From Archaeoglobaceae archaeon (lineage in GTDB: Archaea; Halobacteriota; Archaeoglobi; Archaeoglobales; Archaeoglobaceae), in NCBI GenBank assembly GCA_046483365.1, contig JAWODI010000081.1:58151-122150 (forward strand): a stretch of 64,000 bases of DNA, given 5' to 3'. The position numbers were made by a program, and so were the translations under genes. Under the pieces are notes generated by a model, which did no database searches, was not told the origin of the DNA, and was given only the letters and a program-made list of their open reading frames with translations. Shown here piece after piece: positions 18,602-40,457 of this stretch (positions are counted from its first letter, which is position 1; each line of letters begins with the position of its first letter).

Positions 18602-18652
18602 TAAATCTGTACTGTGCAAATAGACATAAGTATAATATTATATTCTCAAATC

Positions 18653-23600: not shown

Positions 23601-23654
23601 TTTTTCACCTCCATCCTTTAACCAGTATAACAATCAATAACCTATATACCCAAC

Positions 23655-23693: not shown

Positions 23694-23866
23694 AAAAATA
23701 AGCTGAGAACTCGCCAATATACGCATCAGTCACCAATAATCAACAGAAAAGGTTATCCTTCGATGTACGCATAACAAGCAGTATGGCAACCGAGCCAGCA
23801 GTAGCCATCTCCCCGTCAAGTATAACCACCAGGTTTAGCTCAGTTATGATAATGTTTCACGGATAA

Positions 23867-26012: not shown

Positions 26013-26630
26013 CTACTCTGCGGGCTGAAGCCACGCAGCTTCTTTAGTTCTTGTATTGGGTGAGGGTGGTTTGGTGGATTTTTGGTTGGTTTTGAACATA
26101 GTTCTTGGTTGTATCCAGGTCCACGTCGCCTACACTCCTAAAGAACTTTCCTCTGCTCCAAAAATTGCCTTTCGGATATCTTAATCTGAATTTAGGTTCT
26201 CTCTGGAAGAGTGCGCGAGAAGACGCTCCCTTTAACCTTTGAAAAGCTTCAGAAATGCTTATGGTTGGTGGTATGGAAACAACCGCGTGAATGTGTTCGG
26301 GCATAACACTAAGCTCAATTATCTCTATTCCGTGTCTTTCAGCAACCTCTTTCAAGATTTCTTCACAAAGATTTTTATTCTTCTCCTTCCTAAACATCTT
26401 GAATCGATATTTAGGGCACCACTCAAAGTGGTAAATCGCCTGACCAACATGATGGCTTCCGCTAACTAACATATTTCCTCCTGGGTGGGGTTCCAATTTA
26501 TCGCGCCTTGGCGCGGCGCGCAAAAATCCCCACCCAACCAAAGTCATCATAAAAGAGATAAAGTTTAGCCTTGAACGCTATTCATCCCAACTGGCTAAAG
26601 CCAGGGGATTTCTAGCTCACCAATAGTTAA
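26013..26630 (-). mobile_element. IS200/IS605-family element with tnpA only; ends approximate
   Basis: Y1 transposase gene flanked by subterminal hairpins: CGCGCCTTGGCGCG (26502-26515), CTGGCTAAAGCCAG (~26592-26605) and CTGCGGGCTGAAGCCACGCAG (~26019-26039). No tnpB is present. Confidence 0.65.
26044..26472 (-). CDS. tnpA: IS200-type Y1 (HUH) transposase
   Basis: YHFEWCPKYRFKMF, MPEHIHAVVSIPP (HUH motif) and WSRGKFFRSVG (catalytic Tyr region). GGAGG + ATG at 26472 gives 142 aa; the track's 26-aa N-terminal extension covers the end hairpin and was dropped. Confidence 0.85.
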   Translation of the reverse strand: MLVSGSHHVGQAIYHFEWCPKYRFKMFRKEKNKNLCEEILKEVAERHGIEIIELSVMPEHIHAVVSIPPTISISEAFQRLKGASSRALFQREPKFRLRYPKGNFWSRGKFFRSVGDVDLDTTKNYVQNQPKIHQTTLTQYKN

Positions 26631-26654: not shown

Positions 26655-27707
26655 TCAAGCCATTGCGATACGGATTTTATAGTAGCTCTCATTGTATTTG
26701 ATGCAGTTGCTCCACCCCTCAGGTAAGTCGCTTATTGTTGCGCTACCCTCTTCGCTTGCTCTCTCCAGGTCCTGCTTTAGTGCGGGGTGGTCTCTCAACT
26801 CTTTTTCACTCACGTTCGTGCAGGCTGGATGGAGGGAGTAGTCTTTGTTCAGAAGTAATTTGCAATCAACATAAACCCTGTAATAGCTCCCATTATACTT
26901 GATCACACCATCGAACTCCCTGGCTTTTACAAGCTCTTCAAGGGTGACGTTGGTCAACACGAAACCATCAGGTAAAATCACTTGAGTGCCACCCCTATCC
27001 ATCCTGTATCTGGCATCATCAGGCATTGACCTTATTCTTGCTGATGATTTAGCGTATGAACCCTCATAAATCGTGGCCAACTCCTGCTCCAAGAAGGGAA
27101 GTTCACCAACACTAACGCCACCCTCTGCAGCTACTTCTTTGGCTATCAGGATATCGTATAACTTAACTCCATAGTACTTGCCGCCTACTTCAATGCAGTC
27201 ACCTAACCCTCTCAGCCGCGAAATCTCACTTAAACTCACGTTGACAGCTACTTCATCCCCCTCCCGCTCAATAGCCTCCTTAATAGCCGGATAATGGTTC
27301 AACTGAGAACTCGATAAATCCCTACAATCTGCTTCATTCAAGGACTCCATCTTAATAATGTGGATACTCTTCGCCTGATGCTGGGAAGCTGACCACCAGA
27401 AAACACCGATGAATGCAGCTGAACAAACAACAAAAGCAATACCCAATACGGACACCAGCTTTTGAGGAAATCCATTATCCTGTCTCTTTATCCGCATAAA
27501 AATGAGGATGACTAAGCTGATTACGAAGACGAACCCCAGGATAACAGACAAAGGATATAGGAAATTGGGAAAGACAATGAGCTGTGAAATAATATCAACT
27601 TGAAAAACTCCCAACCAAACGGATCCACCATGCAAAGCAGTTAAAATAATTATGAAAACAATGCCCACAGGAACCACCATTTTTGTAACCAAACCAATGC
27701 CTCTCAT
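26655..27707 (-). CDS. Membrane-anchored secreted protein of the 'YNGSYY' paralog family
   Basis: Three N-terminal TM helices, then IEVGGKYYGVKL, IKYNGSYYRVYVD and IKYNESYYKIRIAMA repeats with YPAIKEAIE / HPALKQDLE helices. Confidence 0.5.
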   Translation of the reverse strand: MRGIGLVTKMVVPVGIVFIIILTALHGGSVWLGVFQVDIISQLIVFPNFLYPLSVILGFVFVISLVILIFMRIKRQDNGFPQKLVSVLGIAFVVCSAAFIGVFWWSASQHQAKSIHIIKMESLNEADCRDLSSSQLNHYPAIKEAIEREGDEVAVNVSLSEISRLRGLGDCIEVGGKYYGVKLYDILIAKEVAAEGGVSVGELPFLEQELATIYEGSYAKSSARIRSMPDDARYRMDRGGTQVILPDGFVLTNVTLEELVKAREFDGVIKYNGSYYRVYVDCKLLLNKDYSLHPACTNVSEKELRDHPALKQDLERASEEGSATISDLPEGWSNCIKYNESYYKIRIAMA

Positions 27708-28291: not shown

Positions 28292-28840
28292 CTATGACAC
28301 TGAAGTCCATATTCTTGTTTCGTAGTAGCCCCCATTGTATTTGATGCATGTCTCATTAAACCCTGTTTCTTTCCTATAGTTTGGCATGCCTATTTCTACG
28401 TAGGCACGCCCTTTCGCACTTGCTTCCTTAACCACTTCTTTGAGTTGAGGGTATTTTTTTAGATCTTTTTCAGTGAATTTGGTACAATTTTGGGGTGGCT
28501 CGTACTCGCTTAGGGATACATCTATGTCCACCAGCACTTCATAGAACTCACCGCCATACCTTATTTGTCGTCCATACTTATTCACGAACTCCGCTGCCCT
28601 GACAAGTTCTTCACGGGAAACATTACTGTTTCCTCGGTGTATTCTCATGTAATTTTCCATCTCTGTCTCTCTTATTTTCTCCTCAACCCGCATAATAAAC
28701 CCCTTGATCTTGGGGTAGGTACTCATTTCCTCTTCGCTGACAACAGAATAAGTCTGAGGTTTCTCTATCCTGTGAACAGACACAAGATCAGAAAAACCAA
28801 TTGAATAGTAACTATCGTTAATCTTAACGTACTCAACCAC
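28292..28840 (-). CDS. 'YNGSYY' family protein, C-terminal portion (possibly the second half of a split gene)
   Basis: VKINDSYYSIGF, IRYGGEFYEVLVD and IKYNGGYYETRIW repeats. It has no signal peptide of its own; GTG start. Confidence 0.45.
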   Translation of the reverse strand: MVEYVKINDSYYSIGFSDLVSVHRIEKPQTYSVVSEEEMSTYPKIKGFIMRVEEKIRETEMENYMRIHRGNSNVSREELVRAAEFVNKYGRQIRYGGEFYEVLVDIDVSLSEYEPPQNCTKFTEKDLKKYPQLKEVVKEASAKGRAYVEIGMPNYRKETGFNETCIKYNGGYYETRIWTSVS

Positions 28841-29078: not shown

Positions 29079-29146
29079 ATCCGACCCTAAAACCCCTAAT
29101 TTATGCCTTTATATCTCACTTTTGTTTTCGTAAGTTTTTATTAAAT
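29079..29146 (-). promoter_or_regulatory. Cassette A copy 6
   Basis: Gene-sense: TTAATAAAAACTTACGAAAACAAAAGTGAGATATAAAGG..TTAGGGTCGGAT-ATG. The upstream box overlaps the stop codon of 29141..30574. Confidence 0.55.
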
Positions 29147-30574
29147 TAACCCATTTATTGCTGTCACCACTATCACCAAGGTAACCAGCCCTATGACAGC
29201 AAGTAACAACAGCAAAAGCGCTCTTAATACCCTCCTCATACTCGTCCTCAATTCCATCCTGCCCAGCTTGATGTACATTCTTACTGCAAAGTAGATGCCA
29301 AAGATAAATAGTAAGAATAGAGCTGGGAAGAACAGGGGTTTCAAGCCAGTGGCTAAAGCCGTTAGAGCAGTCGTGGTTCCAGCAAAAAGGTATGACACCA
29401 AATCTCTCCTCTCTACCCCACTTACCATATTCCTTATTTTTCCTTGAGCAAAGTAGAAGAGCCCTGGCAAACCCAGCAGGGTGGAGAAAGTCAGAACAAT
29501 CATTCCCATAGGTTGCCTTAACCACACACTATCGCCTTCTCCAAGGCTGTAGGCTCCTTTAATACTTAAAAACACAACAGTATCCTCCACGTAACGAGCC
29601 AGAGAATCCAGGGGGGTTGGCACGTAAACTTCTTCGATTTCTAAGTCCCTGGTCAACTCCTGGGTGTTCCCAGAGTATTTAGCGTGCACAAAATAAGCTC
29701 CATCCATAATCTGTAGTTGAGGGCTTATCTCCCTTAACTCAGATCTGCTCAAGTAAATGTAGTCCTCATAACCCACTTCCCCACGGAAACCATAATCCTT
29801 GAGACTTTTCTCCTCAACTATTCCTGGAGAAAAGATGAAGAGATTAATCTCCGTCACAGAATTAATGGGGGCAGTGATCTCCAAGGGATAGTATATCTTA
29901 TCGCTCTTGAATCGGTACAGGATGGGGTCTACGCTCCTCTCTTCAGAAGTAGCGTTTATCACATCAATCGCCAGATAATCGTAACCCCTCCCAACATAAT
30001 CACCAATAATTTGATTAAATTCAACTGGCACCTCTCTATCATAACCCTTCTGCCTCACAAAACCCTTAAACCACTCCACAAACTCTTCAGACCTATTAAT
30101 CTTCACCACAGAAATGTTATGGGCACCGATCCTCTCTTGAGACACAAGATGGAAAGCAGATTCTCTGCCTTGACCGAAACCAAAACTTGGGTACTCCGGC
30201 TCCATCTTCATGTTAACATAGTTTTCAACCATGTGAAAGGAAATCATTTCAGCCCCCTCAATGTGAGGCTTCGACGGCAAGGGAAGAACCTCAACCACCG
30301 CTGTCTGGCTGGAAGCTTTCACGTTGGTGGAAAGAATTAAAACCTCTTCACTACCATTCCATCCAATGATAGCGTTCTGCTCCGGCTCATCCAAATCAAC
30401 GTGATATACAGGGATCATACCCTTGTCGGCTGAAGCTGGAGTTGATAAAAACAAAATAAATAAACAAATCGCAGTAGCCATCAAACTCAACTTATCATAA
30501 TTAATTAATCTTAACTGCAAGTAACTTGTCAGAGCATTGGCTACATTAACAGCATTCTCTGTTGTACCCTTCAT
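29141..30574 (-). CDS. Secreted domain plus C-terminal multi-helix membrane protein (weakly DUF2330-like)
   Basis: Signal peptide ..STPASA. EQNAIIGWNGSEEVLILST...AVVEVLPLPSKPHIE is reminiscent of the DUF2330 pattern. About 4 C-terminal TM helices. The true start may be the internal ATG at about 30481. Confidence 0.4.
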   Translation of the reverse strand: MKGTTENAVNVANALTSYLQLRLINYDKLSLMATAICLFILFLSTPASADKGMIPVYHVDLDEPEQNAIIGWNGSEEVLILSTNVKASSQTAVVEVLPLPSKPHIEGAEMISFHMVENYVNMKMEPEYPSFGFGQGRESAFHLVSQERIGAHNISVVKINRSEEFVEWFKGFVRQKGYDREVPVEFNQIIGDYVGRGYDYLAIDVINATSEERSVDPILYRFKSDKIYYPLEITAPINSVTEINLFIFSPGIVEEKSLKDYGFRGEVGYEDYIYLSRSELREISPQLQIMDGAYFVHAKYSGNTQELTRDLEIEEVYVPTPLDSLARYVEDTVVFLSIKGAYSLGEGDSVWLRQPMGMIVLTFSTLLGLPGLFYFAQGKIRNMVSGVERRDLVSYLFAGTTTALTALATGLKPLFFPALFLLFIFGIYFAVRMYIKLGRMELRTSMRRVLRALLLLLLAVIGLVTLVIVVTAINGLI

Positions 30575-30648: not shown

Positions 30649-31938
30649 TTATATATATGTATCACAATCTCCTTTTTCTACTTGTAAATCACAATACTCA
30701 AACGCTATAGCGTTGTTAGCTTCAATCCTTGAGGTATGAGCAGTTTTTTGATACCAATCAGAGTCTATATTTCCGGTTGCTTTGTCCCAAAACGTATCGG
30801 CCCAGTCTGAACACCAAGTATCAAGATAATCGTTAATAGTTCCCTCATCACCAATCACGCACTTCACACCTTTGTTGACTAGTGTGGGGGCTAGATTATT
30901 ACCAGCGTTACATGAATTGATTACAAATAACCGAGACTGTAGATTATCTGAAGCGTCCCAACTACAATACCAGTTGTCCCCACTGAGGCCTATACAGTCA
31001 TCACTACCGTGTCCAGAAAAATAAACTGCTTCATATGTTGTTAACATATTATTGACTTGGTAATCATATAAGATTATGCCATAGTTCACAACTGCTGGAT
31101 CCCAACCGGGGTCTTTTTCCATTGATTCTTCTGCAGCAGCAATATCATTTGGCGATAGGTACCAATCGTCTCTTCCTACAGCTCCTTCGTCGTTATCTAA
31201 AGCTAAGATTGAAAAACCTCTTTCTTCAGTAGAGCTACTATCTGCTTTTCCATGCAATTTCCCGAAGTCGACTGTTGTCTTGTATAACTTCTTTATGGAC
31301 TCCATGAACCTCTCTTCACTAACCTTTTTTCCATTTGTAGCATCAATAACTGTGTTATTAGTGGAAATCCAGAAAACTCCTTTTTCAGGAACTATGATGA
31401 GTTTAGCGTGATCTGAATTCGTCATCTTTAAAGCCTCGTTCTCTGTTACATTTACATTGGGTTTGAAGTTTATTTCTTTTGTAGGCATTTTCCGATATGC
31501 TGCAATTTCACCTGTCATCTTATTTATGGAGATATAACCACTCTCCCCAAAAACACTGATACCATTTATTTGTCTTTCAAACTGAATATCAAAGTCATAT
31601 GGGTTTTCAACTGCACTAACCATCGTATAATCATCACCAAAGAACTTGGTTGCCAACCCAATAGCTTCTTCCTTCGACATCACTGGCTCACCATCAAGGT
31701 TCTCATTAACAGCAGTACGATTAAACCTAAGTACCGTGCTCCCCGTTTTTAAGTCAACCAAAGAATAACCATACTCATCTATTAAAACACTTACCTTATA
31801 TCCAGCATAGAACGTATTATTCTTTATCTCCTCTCCACCTGAAGAATTTTCCTTTTTATTCGTAGCCATTACTGTTGCAGTTACTACACTTGTCGATATC
31901 ACTAACACTAACAACAGCACTAAGACTCTCTTATTCAC
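30649..31938 (-). CDS. Secreted PepSY-like N-domain plus clan-CD-like (gingipain/caspase-fold) cysteine peptidase candidate
   Basis: AAGGAGGTGA Shine-Dalgarno then GTG start gives MNKRVLVLLLVLVISTSVV. N-half EEAIGLATKFFGDDY...ISINKMTGEIAAY. C-half has the His-Gly/Cys dyad pattern VYFSGHGSDD ... LFVINSCNAGN. Confidence 0.45.
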   Translation of the reverse strand: MNKRVLVLLLVLVISTSVVTATVMATNKKENSSGGEEIKNNTFYAGYKVSVLIDEYGYSLVDLKTGSTVLRFNRTAVNENLDGEPVMSKEEAIGLATKFFGDDYTMVSAVENPYDFDIQFERQINGISVFGESGYISINKMTGEIAAYRKMPTKEINFKPNVNVTENEALKMTNSDHAKLIIVPEKGVFWISTNNTVIDATNGKKVSEERFMESIKKLYKTTVDFGKLHGKADSSSTEERGFSILALDNDEGAVGRDDWYLSPNDIAAAEESMEKDPGWDPAVVNYGIILYDYQVNNMLTTYEAVYFSGHGSDDCIGLSGDNWYCSWDASDNLQSRLFVINSCNAGNNLAPTLVNKGVKCVIGDEGTINDYLDTWCSDWADTFWDKATGNIDSDWYQKTAHTSRIEANNAIAFEYCDLQVEKGDCDTYI

Positions 31939-31989
31939 ACAATTCACCTCCTTTAACCAGTATAACAATCAATAACCTATATAACCACC

Positions 31990-32028
31990 GATTTCGTTCG
32001 CTAAACGGCGAACGTTTCCGTAAAGTTT
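31990..32028 (-). promoter_or_regulatory. Motif B copy b
   Basis: Gene-sense: AAACTTTACGGAAACGTTCGCCGTTTAGCGAACGAAATCGGTGGTTATATAGG. Part of a ~150-bp block (31945-32091) nearly identical to 23607-23756. Confidence 0.6.
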
Positions 32029-32128
32029 AAAAATAAGCTGAGAACTCGCCAATATACGCATCAGTCATCAATATTCAACAGAAAAGGTTATGTAGTCAAT
32101 TTCAAGATGATTAGTTGGGGTCTCTGCA

Positions 32129-32623
32129 TTGAGCGATAACAAAATTCAGCTGGACAGGGAAATAATGAGTGCATTATCCTCTGAAAGCAGGATAGCCATT
32201 TTGAGAAGAATCCATGAAAGACAGAAGACTGTGACTGAGCTGGCAAATGAGCTGGATTTATCGAAGTCCACAGTACATAAGCACATCAATAAATTGAGTA
32301 ATGCCGGACTGATAGAAAGGATTGAGAATGACAGCAAATGGGTTTATTACCAACTAACCAAAAAAGGGAAACTGATCCAGGCCGGCAAAGCAGAAGCCAT
32401 TCTATTGCTATCCATGTCCTCTGTGGCCTTCATAGGAGGTGTGATCGAGCTCTACCTCTATTTTGTTGGTATCAAATACCAAGCTCCAGGCACATCTCAT
32501 GATCCAGTCTACCTGATCTTGGGGCAGGTCTTGCTAATTGTGGGAATTGTTGCAGGATATTTTGGCTATAAGATCCTCAAAGAGAAGCGGGGATTGGCCA
32601 AGTTGGAAGGAAAAGTCTCTTGA
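32129..32623 (+). CDS. Membrane-anchored ArsR-type winged-helix regulator (HTH + TM hairpin)
   Basis: SRIAILRRIHERQKTVTELANELDLSKSTVHKHINKLSNAGLIERIENDSKWVYYQLTKKGK, then two TM helices separated by a 13-aa loop (KYQAPGTSHDPVY). Confidence 0.65.
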   Translation: MSDNKIQLDREIMSALSSESRIAILRRIHERQKTVTELANELDLSKSTVHKHINKLSNAGLIERIENDSKWVYYQLTKKGKLIQAGKAEAILLLSMSSVAFIGGVIELYLYFVGIKYQAPGTSHDPVYLILGQVLLIVGIVAGYFGYKILKEKRGLAKLEGKVS

Positions 32624-32652
32624 GATTCTTTCATTTTCCAAGACCCTTTTTT

Positions 32653-32694
32653 AAGCTTTACGATGTTGTTCGCCAAAAAGCGAACGAATTCGCG
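32653..32694 (+). promoter_or_regulatory. Motif B copy d
   Basis: AAGCTTTACGATGTTGTTCGCCAAAAAGCGAACGAATTCGCG, flanked by AGACCC...GGGTCT and followed by TTAAATATTTT. Confidence 0.6.
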
Positions 32695-32765
32695 GGTCTT
32701 AAATATTTTCAATTCTAATTTTACTTTGGCATGCCGTCTGGGGCCCCTCTATAGGAGGTGGAATA

Positions 32766-33524
32766 ATGAAGAAAAAGTATGTGTTATTATCTATTCTTAT
32801 GGTAGCTCTGGTGGCAATGGTGATGGTCGCTGCTACCGGGATTGATGGCCCCAGGGTGGACAGGGAGAAGGCAAAAGACATGGTCAGAGAGTATATAAAT
32901 GATTCTGAGGCTGAAGTCGTTTATAAAAAGAGTGAGAGCCTTAATCATGGCGACTACCTTGTGATGGAAGTAGAAAACGACTGTTTCTACGTTAATTCCG
33001 ACACAGGAATTATTGAGAGAGCTACATTCAATGATGCCAGACAGAACTCCTCAAAAGTCTTGTTGAGCGAGAGGGAAGCGATGAAGCGAGCAGAAAAGTT
33101 CGTCAAGCAGAAATATAGTATTGGGGATATGGAGCTGGTGAGAAGCGATCTGCTCGATCACGGAAATGTGAAGGAGTATCTTTTTATCTGGGCAGAGAAA
33201 ATCTCCGGGGTGGAAACGAATAGAATGGCAGTCTCCGTAAATCCAAATACAGGGCAGATAATCTCCTTCATGGGAATTTTCAGGGAGGCTAAGGTCCAGC
33301 TGCAGCCGGATATCTCCAGAGAAAAAGCAATAGAAATAGCAAATAACCAGTTCAATGTCCAGAACGCTCAAACAAAGGCCAGATTAAGCATTGAATACCC
33401 AGAAAAAGACGTGCAGAAACTCGTGTGGGTGATAGAAACTGAAAGCGAGGAAAGCCTGAACGGTGGTATGGCCATTATCGATGCCTTATCGGGTGAGGTT
33501 TTAATGGCAAGTCCTTATAAATGA
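32766..33524 (+). CDS. Secreted protein with about three PepSY-like repeats
   Basis: AGGAGGTGG Shine-Dalgarno and TM/signal anchor. Repeats begin REKAKDMVREYI, EREAMKRAEKFV and SREKAIEIANNQF, each ending in a ..D..TG.I.. strand (SDTGIIE, PNTGQII, ALSGEVL). Confidence 0.5.
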   Translation: MKKKYVLLSILMVALVAMVMVAATGIDGPRVDREKAKDMVREYINDSEAEVVYKKSESLNHGDYLVMEVENDCFYVNSDTGIIERATFNDARQNSSKVLLSEREAMKRAEKFVKQKYSIGDMELVRSDLLDHGNVKEYLFIWAEKISGVETNRMAVSVNPNTGQIISFMGIFREAKVQLQPDISREKAIEIANNQFNVQNAQTKARLSIEYPEKDVQKLVWVIETESEESLNGGMAIIDALSGEVLMASPYK

Positions 33525-33542
33525 GGACTCACCCCTTTTTTA
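33510..33542 (+). terminator. Hairpin plus T-run
   Basis: AGTCCT-TATAAATG-AGGACT (33510-33529, spans the stop codon) followed by CACCCCTTTTTTT. Duplicated at 39093-39127. Confidence 0.5.
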
Positions 33543-33552
33543 AGGTGGTAAG

Positions 33553-34173
33553 TTGAAGAAAAAGCTTTACATAGTTTTGATTGCTCTGGCGGTTCTGATT
33601 GGGGTGGATATAGCTCTGATCCTCTATACGCCGACTCCCACTGGACCACCACCTACAGAACCCGTGCACCCTCTGGATGAAGTTGATGACTTGAGAATCG
33701 GTGATGTTGTAGTTACAGATAAAAATGGAGAATGGGAACTCTCTTCAGTTCAGTATCCCGGAGGCATATTAAGGGGAGAAAACTATACTGGGGGTGATTA
33801 CGACCCTGATGTTACTATAACCAGCAACAACATTTCGTTCAACATAGGGATTTTGGTAAGCCATCTTAATGAAAGTGGGAAGAAAGAGAGGGAGCTAAAA
33901 ATAATTGAATGGACTTATTCCAATCATGATCAGGCCAGCGTTAAGAAGAAGCAAAAGAGAATTCCAATTAATTTTGACACTCTGGGACTTAAAACCTTCA
34001 GATATAGCACAGACATTCCAGAATCAGACAATCGCACCATCACAAAGAACATCGAGCTGAGAGTGCCAGTGCTGGCAGAAAAACCCAATGGTGAGCTAAT
34101 CTATAGCTATGACTGCACTTTTGTGTTGCGGATTAATGTCCAGAAAAGTGACTGTGAAACTTCCCGAATTTAA
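33553..34173 (+). CDS. ~210-aa N-terminally anchored extracytoplasmic protein, paralog of 39139..39777
   Basis: AAGGTGGT Shine-Dalgarno + TTG start. LYIVLIALAVLIGVDIALILYTPTPTGPP...ELSSVQYPGG.L.GE...LKI.EWTYS... is shared with 39139..39777. Confidence 0.55.
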   Translation: MKKKLYIVLIALAVLIGVDIALILYTPTPTGPPPTEPVHPLDEVDDLRIGDVVVTDKNGEWELSSVQYPGGILRGENYTGGDYDPDVTITSNNISFNIGILVSHLNESGKKERELKIIEWTYSNHDQASVKKKQKRIPINFDTLGLKTFRYSTDIPESDNRTITKNIELRVPVLAEKPNGELIYSYDCTFVLRINVQKSDCETSRI

Positions 34174-34280
34174 ATCATATTTCAGACATTCTGGGGCCAT
34201 CAGATGGTAAAATGGATGGAAAGATAGTTTTAACAGTCAGTAATGCACAACAGAGTGTATGGTACTTCAAAGTTTATGGC

Positions 34281-34350
34281 GAATTGCTGTCCCAGAATGG
34301 GCCCTTATAAAAGGAAGAAATAGCTGAAATGACTGAACTCAATCCCAAAA
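34281..34350 (+). pseudogene. ~70-bp fragment of a dual-wHTH regulator gene (like 43161..43913)
   Basis: GAATTGCTGTCCCAGAATGGGCCCTTATAAAAGGAAGAAATAGCTGAAATGACTGAACTCAATCCCAAAA versus 43727-43797 GAATTACTGTCCCAGAATGGGTCCTTATCAAAAGAAGAAATAGCTGAACTGACAGGAATAAATCCGAAAA. Contains an in-frame TAA. Confidence 0.6.
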
Positions 34351-34358
34351 CCTCTTCT

Positions 34359-34397
34359 AAGCTTTACGATATTGTTCGGCAAAAGCGAACGTTTTCA
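34359..34397 (+). promoter_or_regulatory. Motif B copy e
   Basis: AAGCTTTACGATATTGTTCGGCAAAAGCGAACGTTTTCA, directly abutting the Top6A-like fragment. Confidence 0.55.
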
Positions 34398-34399
34398 TG

Positions 34400-34920
34400 C
34401 CATCAAACAGAGCAAAGACACCGGGGATAGGGGGTCTCCGGCTCCGTGCTCTATGCTCAATTAACTACTGGAAATCCGATAGTAATCACTTCCAAGACCA
34501 CCCCAGAAGAGAAAACCCAGAAAGTGGAACTATATGCCAGCACCAGGACTACGAGTCCCTACGTCCACCTCAAGGACAGCCCGCCAGAAGCACCCGAAGG
34601 CTGCTCAGAAGGCTAAATAAAGAGGTGGATTTACCGGTGATTATATTTACGGCGACCCCTCCGCCACCTTCATAGGTGTAATGCCTTCAGATATTGTCCA
34701 CTATGATCTACCATCTGACAAGCTCACCGATAAGGATATACGGGCTTTGAATTCCATTTTGACTGATCCCCGATTCGATAGCGATTTCTGGAAAAAAGAG
34801 GTGGATATGCAGCTCAAATTGAACAAAAAATCAGAGCAGCAGGCTCTGGCCAAGTATGGGTTGGATTTTGTTACTGATACTTATCTGCCGGATAAGTTGA
34901 GTGAGTTGGGGATTGTCTAA
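34400..34920 (+). pseudogene. Decayed 3' fragment (Toprim to C-terminus) of a topoisomerase VI subunit A / Spo11-like gene
   Basis: [25 protein letters not shown] matches the Toprim motif G-x-PD-x-ATR-x-FL..L....LPV. A shifted frame gives [22 protein letters not shown]. The final ORF (34681-34920) [56 protein letters not shown] matches the Top6A C-terminal pattern. At least two frame changes are needed and the expected segment after DPYG is missing. Confidence 0.55.
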
Positions 34921-34932
34921 TCTGATCATTCT

Positions 34933-35487
34933 TTATTGAGGTTCTATATCTATCCATGAATTGCGTATTTCACCATAACCTGTTGACATCTCGGGGGTTT
35001 CCACATGGACATGCTTCATGACCACATAGTATTTTCCAGGGCCTACCAGATCTCCGTTACTATTTCGTTGATCCCACACATAGGAATACGTTATCTCCTC
35101 CCCAGGCTCCAATTCAATTTCCTTATTTCCCGGGGGGAAATGGCGCACTACCTCTCCAAATGATTTCTCTATTTCCAGTTTTGGGGGAAATGGACTAAAA
35201 TTGAGTTTTTGTATCCCCTGGTTTCTGAAAGTGAAATTGATGTGAACTTCTTTGCCGCTTGGAACATAGTATTTCGAACCATCTATTTCCAGCGGAGGTG
35301 ATTCAGGTGAGAGAACGTGTTCGGGAGTTTGCTCTACTTGCATAGAAGTCTCTTCTGTAACCTGAGGAAACTGTTCTTGGGTAGTATTTGTGACAGATTC
35401 TTTTGGTAGCGAATTATTATAATCTCCATTTTGCGCGCAACCAATCGCAAGTAAGGCTAGTAATATAACCAATACTATTATTTTCAA
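34933..35487 (-). CDS. Lipoprotein with BsuPI-like (proteinase-inhibitor fold) domain
   Basis: Lipobox AIGCAQN. LEPGEEITYSYVWDQRNSNGDLVGPGKYYVVMK matches the remembered BsuPI pattern (..pGE...y...W.......G..v.pG.Y). Confidence 0.4.
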   Translation of the reverse strand: MKIIVLVILLALLAIGCAQNGDYNNSLPKESVTNTTQEQFPQVTEETSMQVEQTPEHVLSPESPPLEIDGSKYYVPSGKEVHINFTFRNQGIQKLNFSPFPPKLEIEKSFGEVVRHFPPGNKEIELEPGEEITYSYVWDQRNSNGDLVGPGKYYVVMKHVHVETPEMSTGYGEIRNSWIDIEPQ

Positions 35488-35544
35488 TTTAATCCCATCT
35501 ATTCCTTATCAGATTTTTATTTAAAGCTTCTTACAAGTTATTTA

Positions 35545-36507
35545 TCAGTCTACCCACGTATAATATGCGTAAGCATCTCCTTCTATTGAATGAGACTCAT
35601 ATATAGGGCACGAACCCTGAGGCGCTTCCCACCATTCCGTATCCACTTGCTCATCCCACCATACTGAAAAATCTTGTACATGGAGTTTTGAGTTCTCGTG
35701 TTTTGCAATTCCTTCATCATCAGTATAAACTCCTGTATCTGACCATATTTCGTTCGCTTGATCTACATTATTTTCTTGGTGCCCAAGGTGGCCACTTCTT
35801 ACCCATTGACCGTCAATCCAAATGTCATATACGTATCCCCAGGCATCCACTTCATTTGAGACGTAAATTACGTAGCTTGTTTTAGAGGACGAATCTGTAG
35901 TTCCGTGGAATTTCCACTGGCCTTCATCATTATCATACGTAAAGTAGTTTATATCTGTGGGATTTCCGTCAACTAACCATCTGACGACGCCTGCTTCAGT
36001 CCAACAAGGTTCTCCAGCTACCTCTTTACCAACGTGTGTGGTGATCACATGCTGTGTCGTCTCATCTGGATCTAATAGCATCTCACTTGGTCTCATGTAA
36101 TTACCTATACCCCGATATACTTCGTTTTCAACTTCCATTACTTGGTTTGCTTGATCTGGAGACGGGACATGCGGAGGAGTTAGAGGCTTTAATTGTTTTA
36201 TTTCCTCATCACTTGGACAGTTACCTGCACATTTTCTCCAAGTTGCTCCTGTTTTTGGATCCCACCCAAATCCTTGATTATTTAGTTCTTTGGTAATCTC
36301 CTCTTTATTCTTTCCCTCACCCTTCATCCTCTTAATCAGTTTTTCTGCTGGGTTTTCAAAATTATTAAGCTCTTCTATATCTTTTTTATCAGGTAATGAT
36401 TTATTGTCTTTAGGTTGTCCACTATTCTCTAAGTTTGCCTTTGCTACTACACTTCCCACCATCACTAATACTAAAACCAGTGTTAAGATTAAGAACTTCT
36501 TTTTCAT
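35545..36507 (-). CDS. Secreted 320-aa protein, unknown function
   Basis: Start MKKKFLILTLVLVLVMVGSVVA (signal peptide). Lys/Glu-rich pro-like region, then a Trp/Tyr/Asp-rich C-domain (WTEAGVVRW, YFTYDNDEGQWKF, YDIWIDGQWV, ANEIWS). Driven by Motif B copy c. Confidence 0.5.
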   Translation of the reverse strand: MKKKFLILTLVLVLVMVGSVVAKANLENSGQPKDNKSLPDKKDIEELNNFENPAEKLIKRMKGEGKNKEEITKELNNQGFGWDPKTGATWRKCAGNCPSDEEIKQLKPLTPPHVPSPDQANQVMEVENEVYRGIGNYMRPSEMLLDPDETTQHVITTHVGKEVAGEPCWTEAGVVRWLVDGNPTDINYFTYDNDEGQWKFHGTTDSSSKTSYVIYVSNEVDAWGYVYDIWIDGQWVRSGHLGHQENNVDQANEIWSDTGVYTDDEGIAKHENSKLHVQDFSVWWDEQVDTEWWEAPQGSCPIYESHSIEGDAYAYYTWVD

Positions 36508-36557
36508 TATCTCACATCCTTTCATCTTAAGTCAGTATCCTAACCTATATAACCACC

Positions 36558-36593
36558 GATTTCGTTTGCTAAACGGCGAACGTTTCCGTAAAA
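36558..36593 (-). promoter_or_regulatory. Motif B copy c
   Basis: Gene-sense: TTTTACGGAAACGTTCGCCGTTTAGCAAACGAAATCGGTGGTTATATAGG. Confidence 0.55.
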
Positions 36594-36865
36594 CTTATAA
36601 CTGTAGCTCGAGAACTTCTTAAACCAATTAAATGATAAACTAGTTTATCAAAATAGAAAGAGTTATGTAAGCTGTTTTAACTAGATCAGAGAGAGGAAAT
36701 CAAAATCCATCACTGATGTCAAATAACACGCTCCATTGTTGTTTAATCCATTTATTTGATCTTGGTTTGTACTGCTAATTGTTGAAGTTGTGGCAGGACA
36801 AGGAGTGGCGGGTTTGGCCAGACTCATAAGAACTCTCAATCTTAAGATCTTTTCAAACCTCTTTT

Positions 36866-36915
36866 AAGCTTTACGGTGTTGTTCGCCAAAATCGAACGTT
36901 TTCATAAAGCTTAAA
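36866..36915 (+). promoter_or_regulatory. Motif B copy f
   Basis: AAGCTTTACGGTGTTGTTCGCCAAAATCGAACGTTTTCATAAAGCTT, with outer arms AAGCTTTA..TAAAGCTT as well; about 115 nt upstream of 37027. Confidence 0.55.
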
Positions 36916-37026
36916 AACTAAAAAATCAAACTGTAAAACAGAATGAAAGTAACCTGATCTTTAGTTTTCTTATTCATAATCCCGATTATATCCTAGAAAT
37001 TTTTCATATATTTCCGTTAATTTTTT

Positions 37027-37569
37027 ATGTTATTTGTTTATCCTTATACTGTGGGGACGGACATTGATTTATCACTGGACAATCGGATGTTTGAAGCTCT
37101 ATCTTCAGGTTTGAGGGTAGAGATATTGAAAAGACTTAAATCAAGGCAGATGACTGCAACAGAGATTTCGAAAGAGCTGGATGTTTCCAAATCTACTGCC
37201 ATCGAGCATTTAAGAAAGCTGGTGGAGGCTGAGCTGGTTATAAGGAGAGATGATGGGAGGAAGTGGATTTACTACAGTCTCTCTGATAGGGGAAAGACGA
37301 TTTTACATAAAAAAGAGTTAAGAGTGAAGATCTTATTTTCTTTTGCAACCATCTTAATGCTTTCTGGTGTGGTACAAATATATGCTTTCGTACAAAGGCT
37401 GTTCGAAAGATTATCGAAGGCTCCCATATTAGATGCTAAACACCCGCCAGAAGTTCCTTACTTATATATAGCTACCCACGATTTCCGGTTCTTGACTGGA
37501 GTAGCTCTTGTAATAGGAAGTATAACGGTATTCTACATAGCTATAAGAAAGTACAGATCCTATTTTTAA
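37027..37569 (+). CDS. Membrane-anchored ArsR-type winged-helix regulator (HTH + TM hairpin)
   Basis: LRVEILKRLKSRQMTATEISKELDVSKSTAIEHLRKLVEAELVIRRDDGRKWIYYSLSDRGK, then two TM helices. The start is uncertain (internal ATG at MFEALSS possible). Confidence 0.6.
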   Translation: MLFVYPYTVGTDIDLSLDNRMFEALSSGLRVEILKRLKSRQMTATEISKELDVSKSTAIEHLRKLVEAELVIRRDDGRKWIYYSLSDRGKTILHKKELRVKILFSFATILMLSGVVQIYAFVQRLFERLSKAPILDAKHPPEVPYLYIATHDFRFLTGVALVIGSITVFYIAIRKYRSYF

Positions 37570-37570
37570 T

Positions 37571-37595
37571 TGTTCGGGAAATCCGAACGATCTCG
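37571..37595 (+). promoter_or_regulatory. Motif B copy g (core palindrome only)
   Basis: TGTTCGGGAAATCCGAACGATCTCG, immediately after the regulator stop and 53 nt before the protease start. Confidence 0.5.
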
Positions 37596-37647
37596 TAATT
37601 ATTTTAACTTAAAAAGATAACCCAGTATCAAATCAGAGGAGGTGTTG

Positions 37648-39036
37648 ATTGTGTGGAGCAAGAGAGTGCTGTATCTGCTGGCCGTATGCATTTTTTTCTC
37701 TCTTACGTTTGTAGTGGGTTCGGCCTTCGGAGATGGCGAAAAAATTCTGATGGGTCCAGAAGAACTGGAGATTAACTGGACAGGCTACGATGGTAGAGTT
37801 ATAGACTACTATGTGCATGAGAATGGAGAGTGGATCGAAAAACAAAGACCTGACTTCTGGTATAAGCATTTAAAGTTAGAGAACCTAAAAGTCCATCACC
37901 CAAATTCGAATAACACCTACGGTAATGTTGCAGGTTCGGCAGTATCTTTGAAGGAAAGTGCGTCAATGAAGGTACCAAGTTATGGTGGATCGTTCATGGA
38001 CCCTGAAAGTGGTATTCTCTTCGTCTATGTTACCAATGAGGAAGATGGAAAAAAGATTCTGGAGATGGTTAACGGGACAAAAGTCGTCTTGCTTGAAGGA
38101 AAATATAGTTACGAACAGCTGGTAGACTGGGAAGATAAACTGCTTCATAAAATAGAGGCAGAAGAGAATAGTTCAATTGCATCACGATGGACCATGATGG
38201 CTCCAAGTGATAAACTGAATAAGATACGCATTGGTCTAAGCTCGGTCGATGATAAAGCTATTAATGAAATCGAGAGCATGCTCAAAGAATTAAATATCCC
38301 ACCTGATGCAGTAACTGTTGAAAAATTCGGCAAGATACAGTTAGATATAAGTCGTTCCGATCGCATAAGACCATTAATTGGAGGAATACAAATTGACAAC
38401 CCCAATTATGGTGGATCTGGAGAGGGCGATTGTACACTTGGTTTCATTGCAACAAGAAATGGTGTCTCCGGCTTCGTAACAGCAGGTCATTGTGGTAATG
38501 AAAATCATCCTATATACCAACCACTTTATACTGGCGATGATTATACTAATTTAGTGGGAGTTGTGACTGATGATCAGCAAGGTAGTAGATTCAGCGATTC
38601 AATGTGGGTCGAGATATATGATAGTTCGTATGATTTCGAAATATACAACCAGTATGACCCCTCAAACCATTATCCTGTTTTCAGTGAAATGCAATCGCAG
38701 AGTACAGGCATGTATGTGTGTCAAGGCGGATTCGAAACCGGTGAAGCCTGCGGTGAGATTGCTGAGGTTAACGTGGATGTAACCCACCCAGAGTACGGCA
38801 CACTATACGACCAGGTACTGGCAACCTATAATCGCGCTGGTGGCGATAGCGGAGCACCTATCTACCATGAACCCCTTGATAGTTGGGTCAGAGATTACTG
38901 TGTAGATACTTATGGTGTAACCTGCCAGGACATCTACGGTATTCACTTTGGATATAACGGTACTGTCAACCGTGCCATATATAGTCCAATAAGCGGAATA
39001 GAGACTGATCTTGGAGAACTTGACACAGATGGATGA
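37648..39036 (+). CDS. Secreted chymotrypsin-fold serine protease, S1E-type (alpha-lytic/streptogrisin-like) with N-terminal pro-domain
   Basis: GAGGAGGTG Shine-Dalgarno + GTG start, signal peptide. The pro-region (YGGSFMDPESGILFVYVTNEEDGKKILEMV...GKYSYEQLVDWEDKL...INEIESMLKELNIPPDAVTVEKFG) is homologous to the 23867..25018 repeats. Catalytic motifs CTLGF..VTAGHCG and GGDSGAPIY. Confidence 0.75.
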   Translation: MVWSKRVLYLLAVCIFFSLTFVVGSAFGDGEKILMGPEELEINWTGYDGRVIDYYVHENGEWIEKQRPDFWYKHLKLENLKVHHPNSNNTYGNVAGSAVSLKESASMKVPSYGGSFMDPESGILFVYVTNEEDGKKILEMVNGTKVVLLEGKYSYEQLVDWEDKLLHKIEAEENSSIASRWTMMAPSDKLNKIRIGLSSVDDKAINEIESMLKELNIPPDAVTVEKFGKIQLDISRSDRIRPLIGGIQIDNPNYGGSGEGDCTLGFIATRNGVSGFVTAGHCGNENHPIYQPLYTGDDYTNLVGVVTDDQQGSRFSDSMWVEIYDSSYDFEIYNQYDPSNHYPVFSEMQSQSTGMYVCQGGFETGEACGEIAEVNVDVTHPEYGTLYDQVLATYNRAGGDSGAPIYHEPLDSWVRDYCVDTYGVTCQDIYGIHFGYNGTVNRAIYSPISGIETDLGELDTDG

Positions 39037-39092
39037 CTAGAACATTGGGAAAAATCAAGTCTGATTATTTTTAGCCCGAGGTTTTAATGGCA

Positions 39093-39127
39093 AGTCCTTA
39101 TAAATAAGGACTCACCCCTCTTTTTTT
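39093..39127 (+). terminator. Hairpin plus T-run, duplicate of 33510-33542, preceded by a PepSY gene 3' remnant
   Basis: 39075-39104 GAGGTTTTAATGGCAAGTCCTTATAAATAA reproduces the last codons (EVLMASPYK*) of 32766..33524. AGTCCT..AGGACT stem then TTTTTTT. Confidence 0.55.
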
Positions 39128-39138
39128 AAGGTGGTAAG

Positions 39139-39777
39139 TTGAACAGAAAGCTCTACATAATTTTAGGTGCTCTGGCAATACTAATTGGGGTGGACATAGC
39201 TCTAATCCTCTATACGCCGACTCCCACTGGACCACCATCAACCATACCACAGCTCCACCCTCTGGAAGAGGTCAATGGGATAGGGGTTGGTGATATCGTA
39301 GTTGTGAATAGGAATGGTGTCTGGGAGCTCTCCTCAGTTCAGTACCCCGGAGGCGTATTGAAGGGAGAGGAGCTCAATGAAAGCTACAACTACCACCCCA
39401 ACATCACTATCCATAGAGATAGCAATACGATCTCCTTTGATATGGGAATTCTGGTGGAACACCTTAACCAGAGTGCAAAGAAGAACAGGGAACTGAAGAT
39501 AGTTGAGTGGACTTATTCAGGACGTGTTGTACTTGATGAAAGTGAGGTAAGAAAGAGCGCTCAGCTCAACCTCAGCCCCGGCCTCAACAACATCAGGTAC
39601 ACCACCACCATACCTGAATCGGATAACTGCACCACTAACAAGGTCATCGAGCTGAAAATCCAGGTGCTGGCAGAAAAAGAAAAAGAAGGAGAGGATGGTG
39701 AGATAGACTATGTCTACGATCAGACAAACGTAGGAACAATTGAGGGCCATAAATGCAATTTAACTAAGAAGAACTAA
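39139..39777 (+). CDS. ~210-aa N-terminally anchored extracytoplasmic protein, paralog of 33553..34173
   Basis: Same Shine-Dalgarno/TTG start and the same N-terminal 35 aa as 33553..34173. Confidence 0.55.
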   Translation: MNRKLYIILGALAILIGVDIALILYTPTPTGPPSTIPQLHPLEEVNGIGVGDIVVVNRNGVWELSSVQYPGGVLKGEELNESYNYHPNITIHRDSNTISFDMGILVEHLNQSAKKNRELKIVEWTYSGRVVLDESEVRKSAQLNLSPGLNNIRYTTTIPESDNCTTNKVIELKIQVLAEKEKEGEDGEIDYVYDQTNVGTIEGHKCNLTKKN

Positions 39778-39876
39778 CTCTTTTCCTTCAATCTTTCCTT
39801 CTTCTTGTTTGTCGGGTAAATTATTTATGAGAAGTAAAACAAAGTTAAGATAAGTTGTATCTTGGAATGGTGTCGT

Positions 39877-40044
39877 ATGTTTGATGTGGAGAAGAAGAGC
39901 AATGAGCTGGGAGTTCCCAAGGACGTTTATAATAAGCTGGAAGAGGACGCTAGGTCTGAGTTTCCAGATGATGATATGATGTTCGAGCTTCACCTCCTCA
40001 GGGCCTTGGAAACTTATTCCAAAAAAGTGAAAAGCTTGATTTAA
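39877..40044 (+). CDS. 55-aa acidic protein, candidate antitoxin of the adjacent PIN remnant
   Basis: MFDVEKKSNELGVPKDVYNKLEEDARSEFPDDDMMFELHLLRALETYSKKVKSLI. Ends 10 nt before the PIN start codon. Confidence 0.35.
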   Translation: MFDVEKKSNELGVPKDVYNKLEEDARSEFPDDDMMFELHLLRALETYSKKVKSLI

Positions 40045-40054
40045 ACTGTTGTTT

Positions 40055-40183
40055 ATGACCAAATCCACTTACCTTAATACTTCAGTTATTAGCGCATTAT
40101 TTGATGATAGAACTCAGGGAAGAAAGAAAATGACTGAGGGGTTCTGGATTGTTGATACAAAAGTTGAGCTCACTATGGCTTGA
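40055..40183 (+). pseudogene. PIN-domain (VapC-like) toxin, N-terminal 42 codons only
   Basis: MTKSTYLNTSVISALFDDRTQGRKKMTEGFW... = the canonical YLDTSV..alfD PIN start; premature TGA at 40181. Confidence 0.5.
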
Positions 40184-40202: not shown

Positions 40203-40457
40203 TTAACGTTTATACACCCTTTTTCTCCAATCAACCTTCAAAACCCGGACTTCATCACTTGTAACTGTATAAAGAACTCTAAAGTCTCCGACACGGATTC
40301 TGTATGTCTTATTTCTACCTTTAACTTTTTTGTAAGGCAAGCAAAATGGGTTGTCTGCAAGTAATCTGAGTTTCTCTTTTATTCTCTCTTCTGCAGCTTC
40401 TTCGAGGTTTTTAAGGAATTTCTCAGCCCTTTTACTGAGAAATACTTTATACTTCAT
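40203..40457 (-). CDS. relE: RelE/ParE-family toxin
   Basis: KTYRIRVGDFRVLYTVTSDEVRVLKVDWRKRVYKR, the typical RelE C-terminal pattern; 84 aa. Confidence 0.75.
   Translation of the reverse strand: MKYKVFLSKRAEKFLKNLEEAAEERIKEKLRLLADNPFCLPYKKVKGRNKTYRIRVGDFRVLYTVTSDEVRVLKVDWRKRVYKR

Follow-up and report, generated by a model that had tools for sequence, protein, structure and literature searches.

Two neighbouring gene clusters in an archaeal genome share one layout around a small regulator with a membrane anchor, and the question they raise is what this regulator controls and through which DNA site. The clusters, X and Y, lie in a 64,000-nt stretch of contig JAWODI010000081.1 (assembly GCA_046483365.1, positions 58,151–122,150 of the forward strand; 'the window', whose coordinates are used throughout). 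The sequence comes from a metagenome-assembled genome (MAG) annotated at NCBI as Archaeoglobaceae archaeon, and the genes concerned carry locus tags R6U44_10130 to R6U44_10180. An initial annotation of the region had described ten open reading frames (ORFs) as a five-part cassette present twice, consisting of a secreted hydrolase, an anchored ArsR-type regulator, a secreted cargo protein, a terminator and an anchored protein of about 210 amino acids (aa), and tied together by copies of a promoter element, Motif B. All ten ORFs are present at, or a few codons from, the positions then given, and the common layout is real: the regulators (regX and regY), the ~210-aa proteins, the hairpin with its T-run and Motif B are each homologous between X and Y. 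We propose, with a probability of about 0.7, that regX and regY are membrane-tethered one-component regulators that act locally and would bind Motif B as an operator to control genes for secreted hydrolases.

Two regulators with an ArsR-type domain on a membrane hairpin

The regX product (32129–32623, plus strand) consists of an ArsR-type winged helix–turn–helix (wHTH) domain at about residues 12–84, a first transmembrane segment (TM1) at about residues 90–113, an outer loop of 11 aa, a second transmembrane segment (TM2) and a basic tail. That of regY (37027–37569, plus strand) has the same order of wHTH, TM1, loop and TM2 with an outer loop of about 30 aa, and the second hydrophobic helix is again followed by a basic tail. 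Both match Pfam HTH_5 and HTH_20 (HTH_5 E = 2e-11 for regX and 7e-13 for regY) and both have two hydrophobic segments, so that the earlier description of a wHTH with a transmembrane (TM) hairpin stands, and on formal alignment they are homologous, with 39% identity across the wHTH and the first TM segment (E = 2e-26). The closest relatives of regY are the regulators of two other loci, L023 and L020 (43% and 39% identical respectively). Among NCBIfam models, NF033788 (HTH_metalloreg-type) recognizes regX with 58.7 bits against a cut-off of 55 and the SdpR model gives a sub-threshold match.

The winged-HTH domain of the ArsR/SmtB family is thus present in both proteins; its metal or metalloid site, whether an alpha-3 Cys motif or a His/Asp/Glu site in alpha-5, is present in neither. 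As regX and regY contain no cysteine and lack the alpha-5 helix, TM1 following directly after the wing, they are not metal sensors. Judged from hydropathy and from the architecture of relatives, the two hydrophobic helices begin no more than 10 residues past the wing, and there is no additional cytoplasmic domain between the wing and TM1 (which starts at about residue 90 in regX). With a DNA-binding domain and at least one TM segment in one polypeptide, both are transmembrane transcription regulators as that class has been defined (PMC10269533), and we read them as membrane-tethered one-component regulators, each with a predicted cytoplasmic ArsR-type wHTH on a membrane hairpin.

Motif B stands at a fixed place in the promoters

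Motif B is the dyad GTTCG-N7/8-CGAAC, of which the window holds 7 copies against 0.8 expected (N8 form); all seven are intergenic, none more than 14 kb from a regulator gene. The initial annotation had placed b, c, d, f and g correctly, and copies a and e are additional. Copy b (31949–32091, no strand assigned, as for c and f; dyad at 31996–32013) lies between outward-facing TATA-like boxes, TTATATA facing pepX and TTTAAAAATA facing regX. Its equivalent in cluster Y, copy c (36512–36616; dyad at 36564–36581, with one arm mismatch), is 81% identical to module b. Copy d (32642–32692, plus strand; dyad at 32668–32685) has its dyad 45 nt past the regX stop codon and, 11 nt on, a TATA-like box; copy f (36855–36917; dyad at 36881–36897) is the d equivalent, lies 129 nt upstream of regY and has its dyad within an extended palindrome, TTTTAAGCTTTA...TAAAGCTTAAAA. 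Copy g (37569–37594, plus strand; dyad at 37572–37588) has its dyad 3 nt past the regY stop and a TATA-like box 10 nt on, and the same order of regulator stop, dyad and protease gene is found in L020 and L023. Copy a (23614–23756, minus strand) is a 143-nt bidirectional promoter module with the dyad GTTCGCTAAAAGGCGAAC at 23661–23678, in front of a phospholipase C (PLC)-like gene. Copy e (34348–34398, plus strand; dyad at 34374–34390) is an orphan at a rearrangement junction, 90% identical to f over 51 nt, with neither a TATA-like box nor a gene downstream.

The geometry of these sites is regular. In the window, 10–12 nt separate the end of the dyad from the TATA-like box (TTATATA, TTAAATA or TTATTTTAA), and the distance from dyad to start codon is 56–60 nt for copies a, b, c and g (60 nt to the PLC-like start for a, 56 nt to the secY start for c, about 57–62 nt to the protease start for g) and 80 nt for copy d, which precedes the PepSY gene; the start codons at dyad-bearing promoters have GGAGGTG in front. 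On the far side of b and f a second outward A/T box, again TTTAAAAATA, faces regX (start 115 nt off) and regY (129 nt) respectively. In a half-site logo built from 44 sites (88 half-sites) T/A-rich boxes appear at +13 to +19 on both sides, the GTTCG arm is kept in 42 of the 44 sites, and a conserved extension, CGA-N4-GTTCG...CGAAC-N4-TCG, ends about 4 nt short of the TATA-like box. The arrangement would fit an operator centred near −50 from the predicted transcription start, placed between divergent promoters or upstream of a single one.

Modules a and b are 96% identical over 143 nt, a length that takes in the Shine–Dalgarno (SD) sequence of the cargo gene, the operator and the first 60 nt of the regX leader, though the genes flanking them are unrelated. 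As copy a drives the PLC-like gene, the regulon exceeds the two clusters. The five-part cassette is therefore not a strict unit, the regulon extending to the PLC-like gene (22.4–23.6 kb) and probably to the DUF2330 gene.

The proposed operator accompanies the regulator in other archaea

A scan with the regulator alignment, taking one genome per species, returned 183 relatives, from which 80 loci (534 kb; numbered L001 and so on) were retained, spread over Archaeoglobi, ANME-1/Methanophagales, Methanomicrobia, Thermococci, Thermoplasmatota, Aenigmarchaeota, Micrarchaeota, Hydrothermarchaeota and Halobacteriales. The wHTH–TM–loop–TM architecture is kept in about 72 of the 80, with loops of 10 to about 300 residues, and the larger loops suggest that sensing in this family may be the task of the loop. 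In all, 26 of the 80 loci contain the exact dyad, with 32 occurrences as against 0–4 matches in 20 shuffles, typically in the form TTATATAA-N13-GTTCGGAAAA(A)CCGAAC-gttttcgatagTTTTAT and often at, or overlapping, the 3′ end of the regulator gene, as with copies d and g. Its presence goes with the recognition helix K-S-[ST]-x-x (19 of 26 loci, against 1 of 29 with other helix types; Fisher p = 6e-8). Next to regulators of the KTTVKEH, KATVHEH and KPTLLEH helix groups (loci L031–L090) the GTTCG dyad is almost never found, and these groups presumably recognize different operators. Two more distant relatives, L014 and L015, lie in different, non-secretome contexts, and the description of the regulon is therefore limited to the K-S-[ST] helix subgroup and does not extend to the whole superfamily.

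The neighbourhood of regulator, PepSY gene and p206/p212-type gene (p206 and p212 being the ~210-aa proteins of X and Y) recurs together with the dyad in L001 and L004. Four dyads precede four transcription units around the regX homolog of L001, where the flanks have diverged, and in L004, too, every transcription unit has a dyad in front despite different flanking sequence. The cultured species Geoglobus acetivorans (L011; CP087714) encodes a hairpin-anchored regulator of 154 aa, with the helix LSKPTILYHMKIL, divergently from an operon that includes a pepX homolog; both promoters carry TTTACGAAAA-TGTTAG-N8-CTAACA, so that the two arms have changed symmetrically and the rest of the module is kept.

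The genes that accompany the regulators encode exported proteins more often than expected from the surroundings. An N-terminal hydrophobic segment is present in 29–35% of ORFs within 2 kb of the regulator and in 14% of those farther away (p = 5e-4 to 1e-4), and in dyad-bearing loci nearly all genes between dyad and regulator start with such a segment. In other lineages the cargo again consists of secreted proteases and PepSY-like proteins. An S1E protease is encoded in the window, in L020 and L023 and, as a distant relative, in L024, and an S8 subtilase in L017 (Pfam E = 9e-29). A DUF6345 protein with a 248-aa partner (weakly YycI-like) occurs in L001, L021, L028 and L030, and the 248-aa partner is also near the regulator in L035, L042 and L063; at least six loci are counted in which DUF6345 is accompanied by such a PepSY-like pair. 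The secY family recurs in L030, a DUF2330 homolog directly after a family regulator in L018, a 305/326-aa family with the motif DEDHP...NxWNHAM in L001 and L011, and pepX in L011.

Cargo of the two clusters

In cluster Y the gene that follows regY encodes a secreted S1E protease of the alpha-lytic/streptogrisin type with an N-terminal prodomain (S1Y; 37642–39036, plus strand). The identity proposed earlier is upheld by a match to PDB 2pfe (E = 1.3e-8) and to alpha-lytic protease (E = 2e-5 or better), with the catalytic His and Ser motifs TAGHCG and GGDSGAP aligned; an NCBIfam Rv1815-type match falls below its cut-off and Pfam gives no match at E ≤ 0.01. S1Y is 54% identical to its homolog in L020. 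The start assigned earlier, 37648, had to be given up, since it is an ATT codon; usable starts are GTG at 37642, TTG at 37645 and GTG at 37651.

The corresponding gene in cluster X encodes a secreted PepSY/DUF4901 protein (32766–33524, plus strand; PF03413 E = 1.8e-9, in agreement with the first assignment, and DUF4901 E = 4.5e-8), 96% identical to its ortholog in L004. The divergent genes of the two clusters, pepX and secY, are not homologous, and the cargo therefore differs between X and Y as originally stated. The pepX gene (30649–31938, minus strand) encodes a secreted protein of 429 aa in which PepSY-like repeats at the N-terminus precede a Cys-rich C-terminal domain. An alignment with 12 homologs shows invariant SGHG (H310) and S-A-C (C343) motifs and many conserved cysteines, and homologs occur in Geoglobus and Archaeoglobus, one of them named 'C13 family peptidase' in UniRef. 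We regard it as a putative, unverified cysteine peptidase. The label 'clan-CD-like' could not be substantiated: Pfam, NCBIfam, phmmer against PDB and a PDB profile search were all negative for such a peptidase, as was hhalign against the DUF6345/236-aa group, and the AlphaFold2 (AF2) model of the C-terminal domain has a predicted local distance difference test score (pLDDT) below 50. Downstream of pepX, and probably co-transcribed with it, lies a gene for a membrane or secreted DUF2330 protein (29141–30574, minus strand; Pfam E = 8e-8).

The secY gene (35545–36507, minus strand) encodes a secreted protein of 320 aa for which searches of Pfam, NCBIfam and PDB gave no match; a homolog of 35% identity stands behind a dyad in L030. 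Beside it lies a gene for p184 (34933–35487, minus strand), a lipoprotein with the lipobox LAIGC that is 78% identical to a 178-aa protein located next to an intact top6A in L004. Weak matches, below threshold, to FlgD_ig and to the proteinase inhibitor fold BsuPI suggest that p184 may be a lipoprotein protease inhibitor. The gene behind copy a (22449–23600, minus strand) encodes a secreted protein resembling zinc-dependent phospholipase C (PDB 8cqm, E = 2.6e-6; Bacillus cereus PLC, E = 1e-4). The PDB alignments cover about 90–115 residues, and the match to Pfam Zn_dep_PLPC is weak (E = 0.009; 16.4 bits against a cut-off of 26.8). On the far side of copy a is a gene for a 383-aa exported protein (23867–25018, minus strand) made of two tandem copies of a homolog of the S1E prodomain (28–31% identity), with a PGF-CTERM-like anchor. 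A catalytic domain is lacking, and the protein may be a prodomain on its own that serves as an inhibitor or a chaperone.

The anchored p206 and p212 proteins

The proteins p206 (33553–34173, plus strand), in which a Pro/Thr linker joins an N-terminal TM anchor to an all-beta ectodomain, and p212 (39139–39777, plus strand) are paralogs as first supposed (58% identity, E = 7e-60), and p212 is the ortholog of p208 in L004 (83% identical). The AF2 model of p206 has a pLDDT of 76 and in a Foldseek search of PDB gave generic beta-sandwich matches only (TM-score ≤ 0.36). The family is an orphan one, with 5 clusters in 5.8e9 proteins and 10 matches in 1.84e9 representatives, two of them full-length; a profile search of the same 1.84e9 representatives gave no informative remote relatives. 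Three long neighbourhoods were recovered, and genes of this type lie directly 3′ of the PepSY gene in L001 and L004; neither Geoglobus nor the more distant mapped loci have them. The family is therefore linked to PepSY rather than to the regulator. As L001 (6978–8260) has two tandem paralogs after PepSY (209 and 198 aa, 49% identical), of which the 209-aa protein is 62–64% identical to p206, the split between p206 and p212 would seem to be older than the rearrangement in the window.

Between PepSY and p206 an 8-bp hairpin followed by a T6 run (33510–33541, plus strand; ΔG −13.5, z −3.2) overlaps the PepSY stop and ends 12 nt before the SD/start of p206. After the protease gene (39078–39127, plus strand) the final ~10 PepSY codons and this hairpin are found again, here with a T7 run, 33495–33541 and 39078–39124 being 96% identical over 47 nt, and the copies fold at −11.5 to −13.5 kcal/mol (z about −3.2 to −3.6). 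The stem–loop with its T6–7 run is present in X, Y and L004; L001 keeps the T-run and has no hairpin. Of the terminator that had been proposed here, the repeated hairpin and T-run are real, and a scan with a terminator consensus, which is a bacterial one, did not flag them. As the SD/start follows within 12 nt and the hairpin is missing in L001, the element is better taken as a possible attenuator, with read-through equally possible.

Cargo was exchanged within a conserved frame

The history of the clusters was reconstructed in part, by comparison with a single sister locus, the MAG contig L004 (identical with L016), which is 87–92% identical in nucleotide sequence and has one cluster only. 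Its order is top6B–top6A, p178 and secY (both minus strand), a dyad, genes for 305- and 212-aa proteins (both minus strand), a dyad, the regX ortholog (91% aa identity), a dyad, a gene for a 236-aa protein, PepSY (96% aa identity), p208 and a downstream flank that corresponds to window positions 39777–40154. The first 236 nt of the p208 gene match p206 at 92%, yet p208 is orthologous to p212. Between the clusters of the window, with orphan copy e in front, lies a relic of topoisomerase VI (34437–34920, plus strand), detected by tblastn with the L004 proteins, in which Top6B residues ~113–156 are fused to Top6A residues 207–247 and 268–359; it is frameshifted and internally deleted, and an ORF within it (34681–34920) gives NCBIfam and Pfam matches. 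As top6B–top6A is intact at the corresponding place in L004, the genome from which the window comes must carry a functional copy elsewhere.

A second relic, the decayed 3′ third of a regX-type gene (36714–36855, plus strand; together with copy f, 61% identity over 259 aligned nt, E = 2e-13), lies between copies c and f. In L023 (Archaeoglobus sp. MAG) and L020 (Geoglobus sp. MAG) the regulator stop is followed by a dyad and then by a homolog of S1Y (46–54% identical). Cluster Y is, on this comparison, an L004-like frame in which a regY–dyad–protease pair has replaced the regX-type regulator, the 236-aa gene and most of PepSY, of which the last ~30 nt are retained. The exchange of cargo within a conserved frame that had been deduced from the PepSY 3′ remnant (47 nt, 96% identical, and aligning with L004) is thus borne out, since this remnant and the regX-type relic flank a regY–S1E pair known from elsewhere. 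The repeated promoter modules and the junction of the PepSY 3′ end with the p206/p212 5′ end are evident recombination substrates, and it is by recombination at these sites that the two clusters would have arisen. A simple tandem duplication of X to give Y does not explain the regX-type relic in Y or the closer relatives that regY and S1Y have in other genomes, and was rejected on these grounds. L004 itself contains a 65-nt relic of the S1Y prodomain (within 12181–12333, 94% identical) 1.5 kb downstream of p208, and its secY ortholog (5275–5974) is split into ORFs of 141 and 89 aa; these findings again point to turnover of the same cargo genes.

Other features of the region

The clusters are part of a stretch of the window (about 10000–44000) with a G+C content of 0.37–0.43 as against 0.44–0.49 in its flanks. 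It encodes mostly exported or membrane proteins without family assignment, together with wHTH regulators, and looks like a variable 'secretome island'. Inside it are an IS200-type Y1 transposase gene (26044–26550, minus strand; Pfam E = 5e-34) and, just downstream of cluster Y, a ParE/RelE-type toxin gene (40203–40457, minus strand; E = 1e-10); the L004 flank that corresponds to the toxin site has HicAB and PIN-like genes. Three wHTH genes in a row (17329–18989), with no GTTCG dyad nearby, encode a 233-aa protein with two ArsR-type HTH domains and an N-terminal signal or TM region (17329–18030), a 96-aa wHTH (18311–18601) and a soluble 84-aa wHTH (18735–18989) that is 53% identical to the regY DNA-binding domain and is followed by a gene for a 406-aa exported protein. 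Three paralogous membrane or exported proteins (25128–25937, 26655–27707 and 28292–28840, all minus strand) have a mutual identity of 27–31%, and their C-terminal segment also matches ORFs adjacent to the regulator in L034 and L041. A reading of the region as a defence system was tried and rejected, as PADLOC was negative for the cargo and eight non-regulator proteins had no match at all; the generic wHTH of the regulators alone matched, to the wHTH portions of Csa3/CasR. A search of the region against Rfam gave no RNA family match.

Discussion

The recurrence of the dyad beside the regulator, its correlation with the recognition helix, the symmetrical change of arms in G. acetivorans and the secreted nature of the cargo all support one-component, ArsR-type control through Motif B, as the initial annotation had supposed. 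From these we infer that regX and regY would bind the dyad as dimers from the membrane, each controlling the gene that encodes it along with neighbouring genes for exported proteins; predicted targets are the S1E protease, pepX (with the DUF2330 gene), PepSY with p206/p212, secY and the PLC-like enzyme. As only ~10 residues separate the DNA-binding domain from the bilayer that anchors it, each regulator would probably act mainly on promoters near its own gene, and such membrane-limited action would account for the tight cis-linkage in which regulator, operator and cargo travel together. Activation is weakly favoured over repression because the operator lies upstream of TATA, because the sequence just upstream of the TATA-like boxes, at the position of the transcription factor B recognition element (BRE), is G/C-rich rather than A-rich, and because ArnR and the bacterial precedents discussed below activate. 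Whether signals enter through the 11-residue loop of regX or by proteolysis is a matter of speculation.

Several points weigh against this proposal. An outer loop of 11 aa, as in regX, offers little for sensing; the TATA boxes and transcription starts were deduced from sequence; and ArsR-family proteins are classically repressors. With the conserved TCG that lies 5 nt outside each arm the footprint would reach into the BRE region and suit repression equally well. The exact GTTCG dyad is missing from 54 of the 80 loci, most of which have other helix types, and the pepX homolog of Archaeoglobus (L012, L013) has neither a family regulator nor a dyad adjacent to it. Finally, the statistical tests ignore phylogenetic non-independence, and the measure of signal peptides is a crude hydropathy heuristic applied to our own ORF calls.

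It is possible, and on balance we think unlikely, that the same protein–operator pair works as an autorepressor whose extended footprint, once it is bound, masks the BRE at one flanking promoter or at both, with induction following when the protein is removed from DNA, for instance by cleavage of the hairpin or loop, by a change in the membrane or in secretion, or by titration by a partner such as p206 or p212. ArsR/SmtB proteins, SdpR included, typically repress, and the NCBIfam matches are to HTH_metalloreg and SdpR-type models; the conserved CGA-N4...N4-TCG extension comes close to the TATA-like box; the regulator genes stand behind the same operator, which implies autoregulation; and secreted proteases among the cargo would permit feedback. 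Most archaeal repressors, however, bind at TATA or at the start site, and the centre of the core dyad is ~20 bp upstream of TATA and overlaps neither. An 11-aa loop would also be a poor substrate for a protease, and the characterized membrane-tethered regulators cited in PMC10269533 and PMC6396743 all activate.

A wider view, to which we give little credence, is that the hairpin family is a widespread archaeal device that links transcription of its own locus to extracellular events. Inserted beside its own gene, the regulator would keep the cluster close to the membrane, the site of co-translational export of the cargo; the short outer loop or the hairpin of the regulator would be clipped or occupied by the secreted protease, PepSY or p206/p212-type products of the cluster; and each swappable hydrolase module would in this way gain a private feedback loop, with the 143-bp promoter module recruiting new cargo by recombination.

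Slightly less probable again is that Motif B is bound by some other, soluble factor, for which the 84-aa wHTH encoded at 18735–18989 is a candidate, or is a generic element of secretome promoters, the anchored proteins being merely co-regulated cargo. Soluble wHTH paralogs do exist in the window, among them this candidate with its 53% identity to the regY wHTH. Against this, the dyad follows the membrane-anchored regulator across phyla, correlates with its helix and co-varies with it in G. acetivorans, and no soluble paralog is a consistent neighbour in the mapped dyad-bearing loci. That Motif B acts as an RNA hairpin that terminates or stabilizes transcripts, for example as a terminator of regX or regY, is very improbable: the window dyads do fold as 8–9 bp hairpins, copies d and g come after regulator stop codons and the consensus scan flags e, f and d as terminator-like, but for copies a, b and c, as for the one in G. 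acetivorans, the flanking genes are divergent and leave nothing to terminate, the arm sequence itself is conserved and not mere pairing, the downstream spacing to TATA-like boxes and start codons is fixed, and Rfam gave no match. We likewise see hardly any prospect that the likeness of the clusters is debris of segmental duplication in a variable island with no common regulatory logic, because, rearranged as the region is (the topoisomerase VI and regX-type relics, orphan copy e, the IS200-type transposase and the lower G+C content), regX and regY are only 39% identical, each has closer relatives elsewhere with the same arrangement of operator and cargo, and the operator is conserved far outside this lineage.

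As membrane-tethered regulators regX and regY have a parallel in ArnR and ArnR1 of Sulfolobus acidocaldarius, which activate the archaellum operon as membrane-bound one-component regulators and bind inverted repeats (TCGAC-N5-GTCGA) at −43 to −84, upstream of BRE/TATA (PMC6396743). These too are archaeal, occur as a paralogous pair in one genome and combine an N-terminal HTH with two C-terminal TM segments, and the dyad described here, 10–13 nt upstream of TATA-like boxes, would occupy an analogous, symmetric position. In contrast, ArnR has HAMP-like and sensor domains between the HTH and the TM segments (PMC6396743), for which there is no room in regX and regY, where TM1 starts no more than 10 residues past the wing. 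The operator sequence is also different, with a single dyad where ArnR has two boxes, and the targets are secreted hydrolases and not type IV pili or the archaellum; the two families are set apart here by description, not by sequence. A census of transmembrane transcription regulators counted 1,384 in 404 archaeal species, about 4 per genome, and gives neither operator nor regulon for a family of the regX/regY type (PMC10269533).

The bacterial regulators ToxR, TcpP, CadC, VtrA and BcrR are likewise one-component proteins acting on DNA from the membrane, but have OmpR- or XRE-type domains, mostly one TM segment and a sizeable periplasmic sensor, whereas regX and regY have an ArsR-type domain and a TM hairpin, with merely 11 aa outside in regX. 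From ArsR/SmtB proteins, with which they share the winged-helix domain and, as proposed here, dyad-symmetric operators and autoregulation, they differ in that the membrane hairpin replaces the C-terminal dimerization helix and the cargo is unrelated to metals. In the SdpR–SdpI system of Bacillus subtilis a winged-helix repressor is sequestered at the membrane by SdpI, and the winged-helix repressors BlaI and MecI are governed by signal-induced proteolysis through BlaR1 and MecR1; in all of these the repressor is a separate, soluble protein, whereas the DNA-binding domain of regX and regY is fused to its anchor. A literature search for HVO_A0261 (a Pfam name that was matched) and for membrane-bound ArsR regulators of proteases in archaea found no description of the family. 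The class is thus already known, through ArnR and the transmembrane transcription regulators, and the regX/regY family with its operator and regulon appears to be undescribed.

To our knowledge almost nothing has been established about how transcription of the archaeal secretome is regulated, and ArnR is the only archaeal membrane-tethered regulator that we know to have been characterized. The present work supplies, for one family of such regulators, a concrete candidate operator (GTTCG-N7/8-CGAAC) with its promoter geometry, a natural variant of specificity (GTTAG) in the cultured G. acetivorans and a recurring regulon of secreted proteases and PepSY-type proteins, in a family that spreads through Archaeoglobi, ANME-1/Methanophagales, Methanomicrobia, Thermococci and DPANN lineages. 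The region also illustrates how promoter–operator modules act as substrates for recombination and alter the set of exported enzymes under a regulator's control. The operator–regulator pair is directly testable and gives a handle on when archaea deploy extracellular hydrolases; regulator, site and cargo together look like a widespread, uncharacterized switch for extracellular enzymes.

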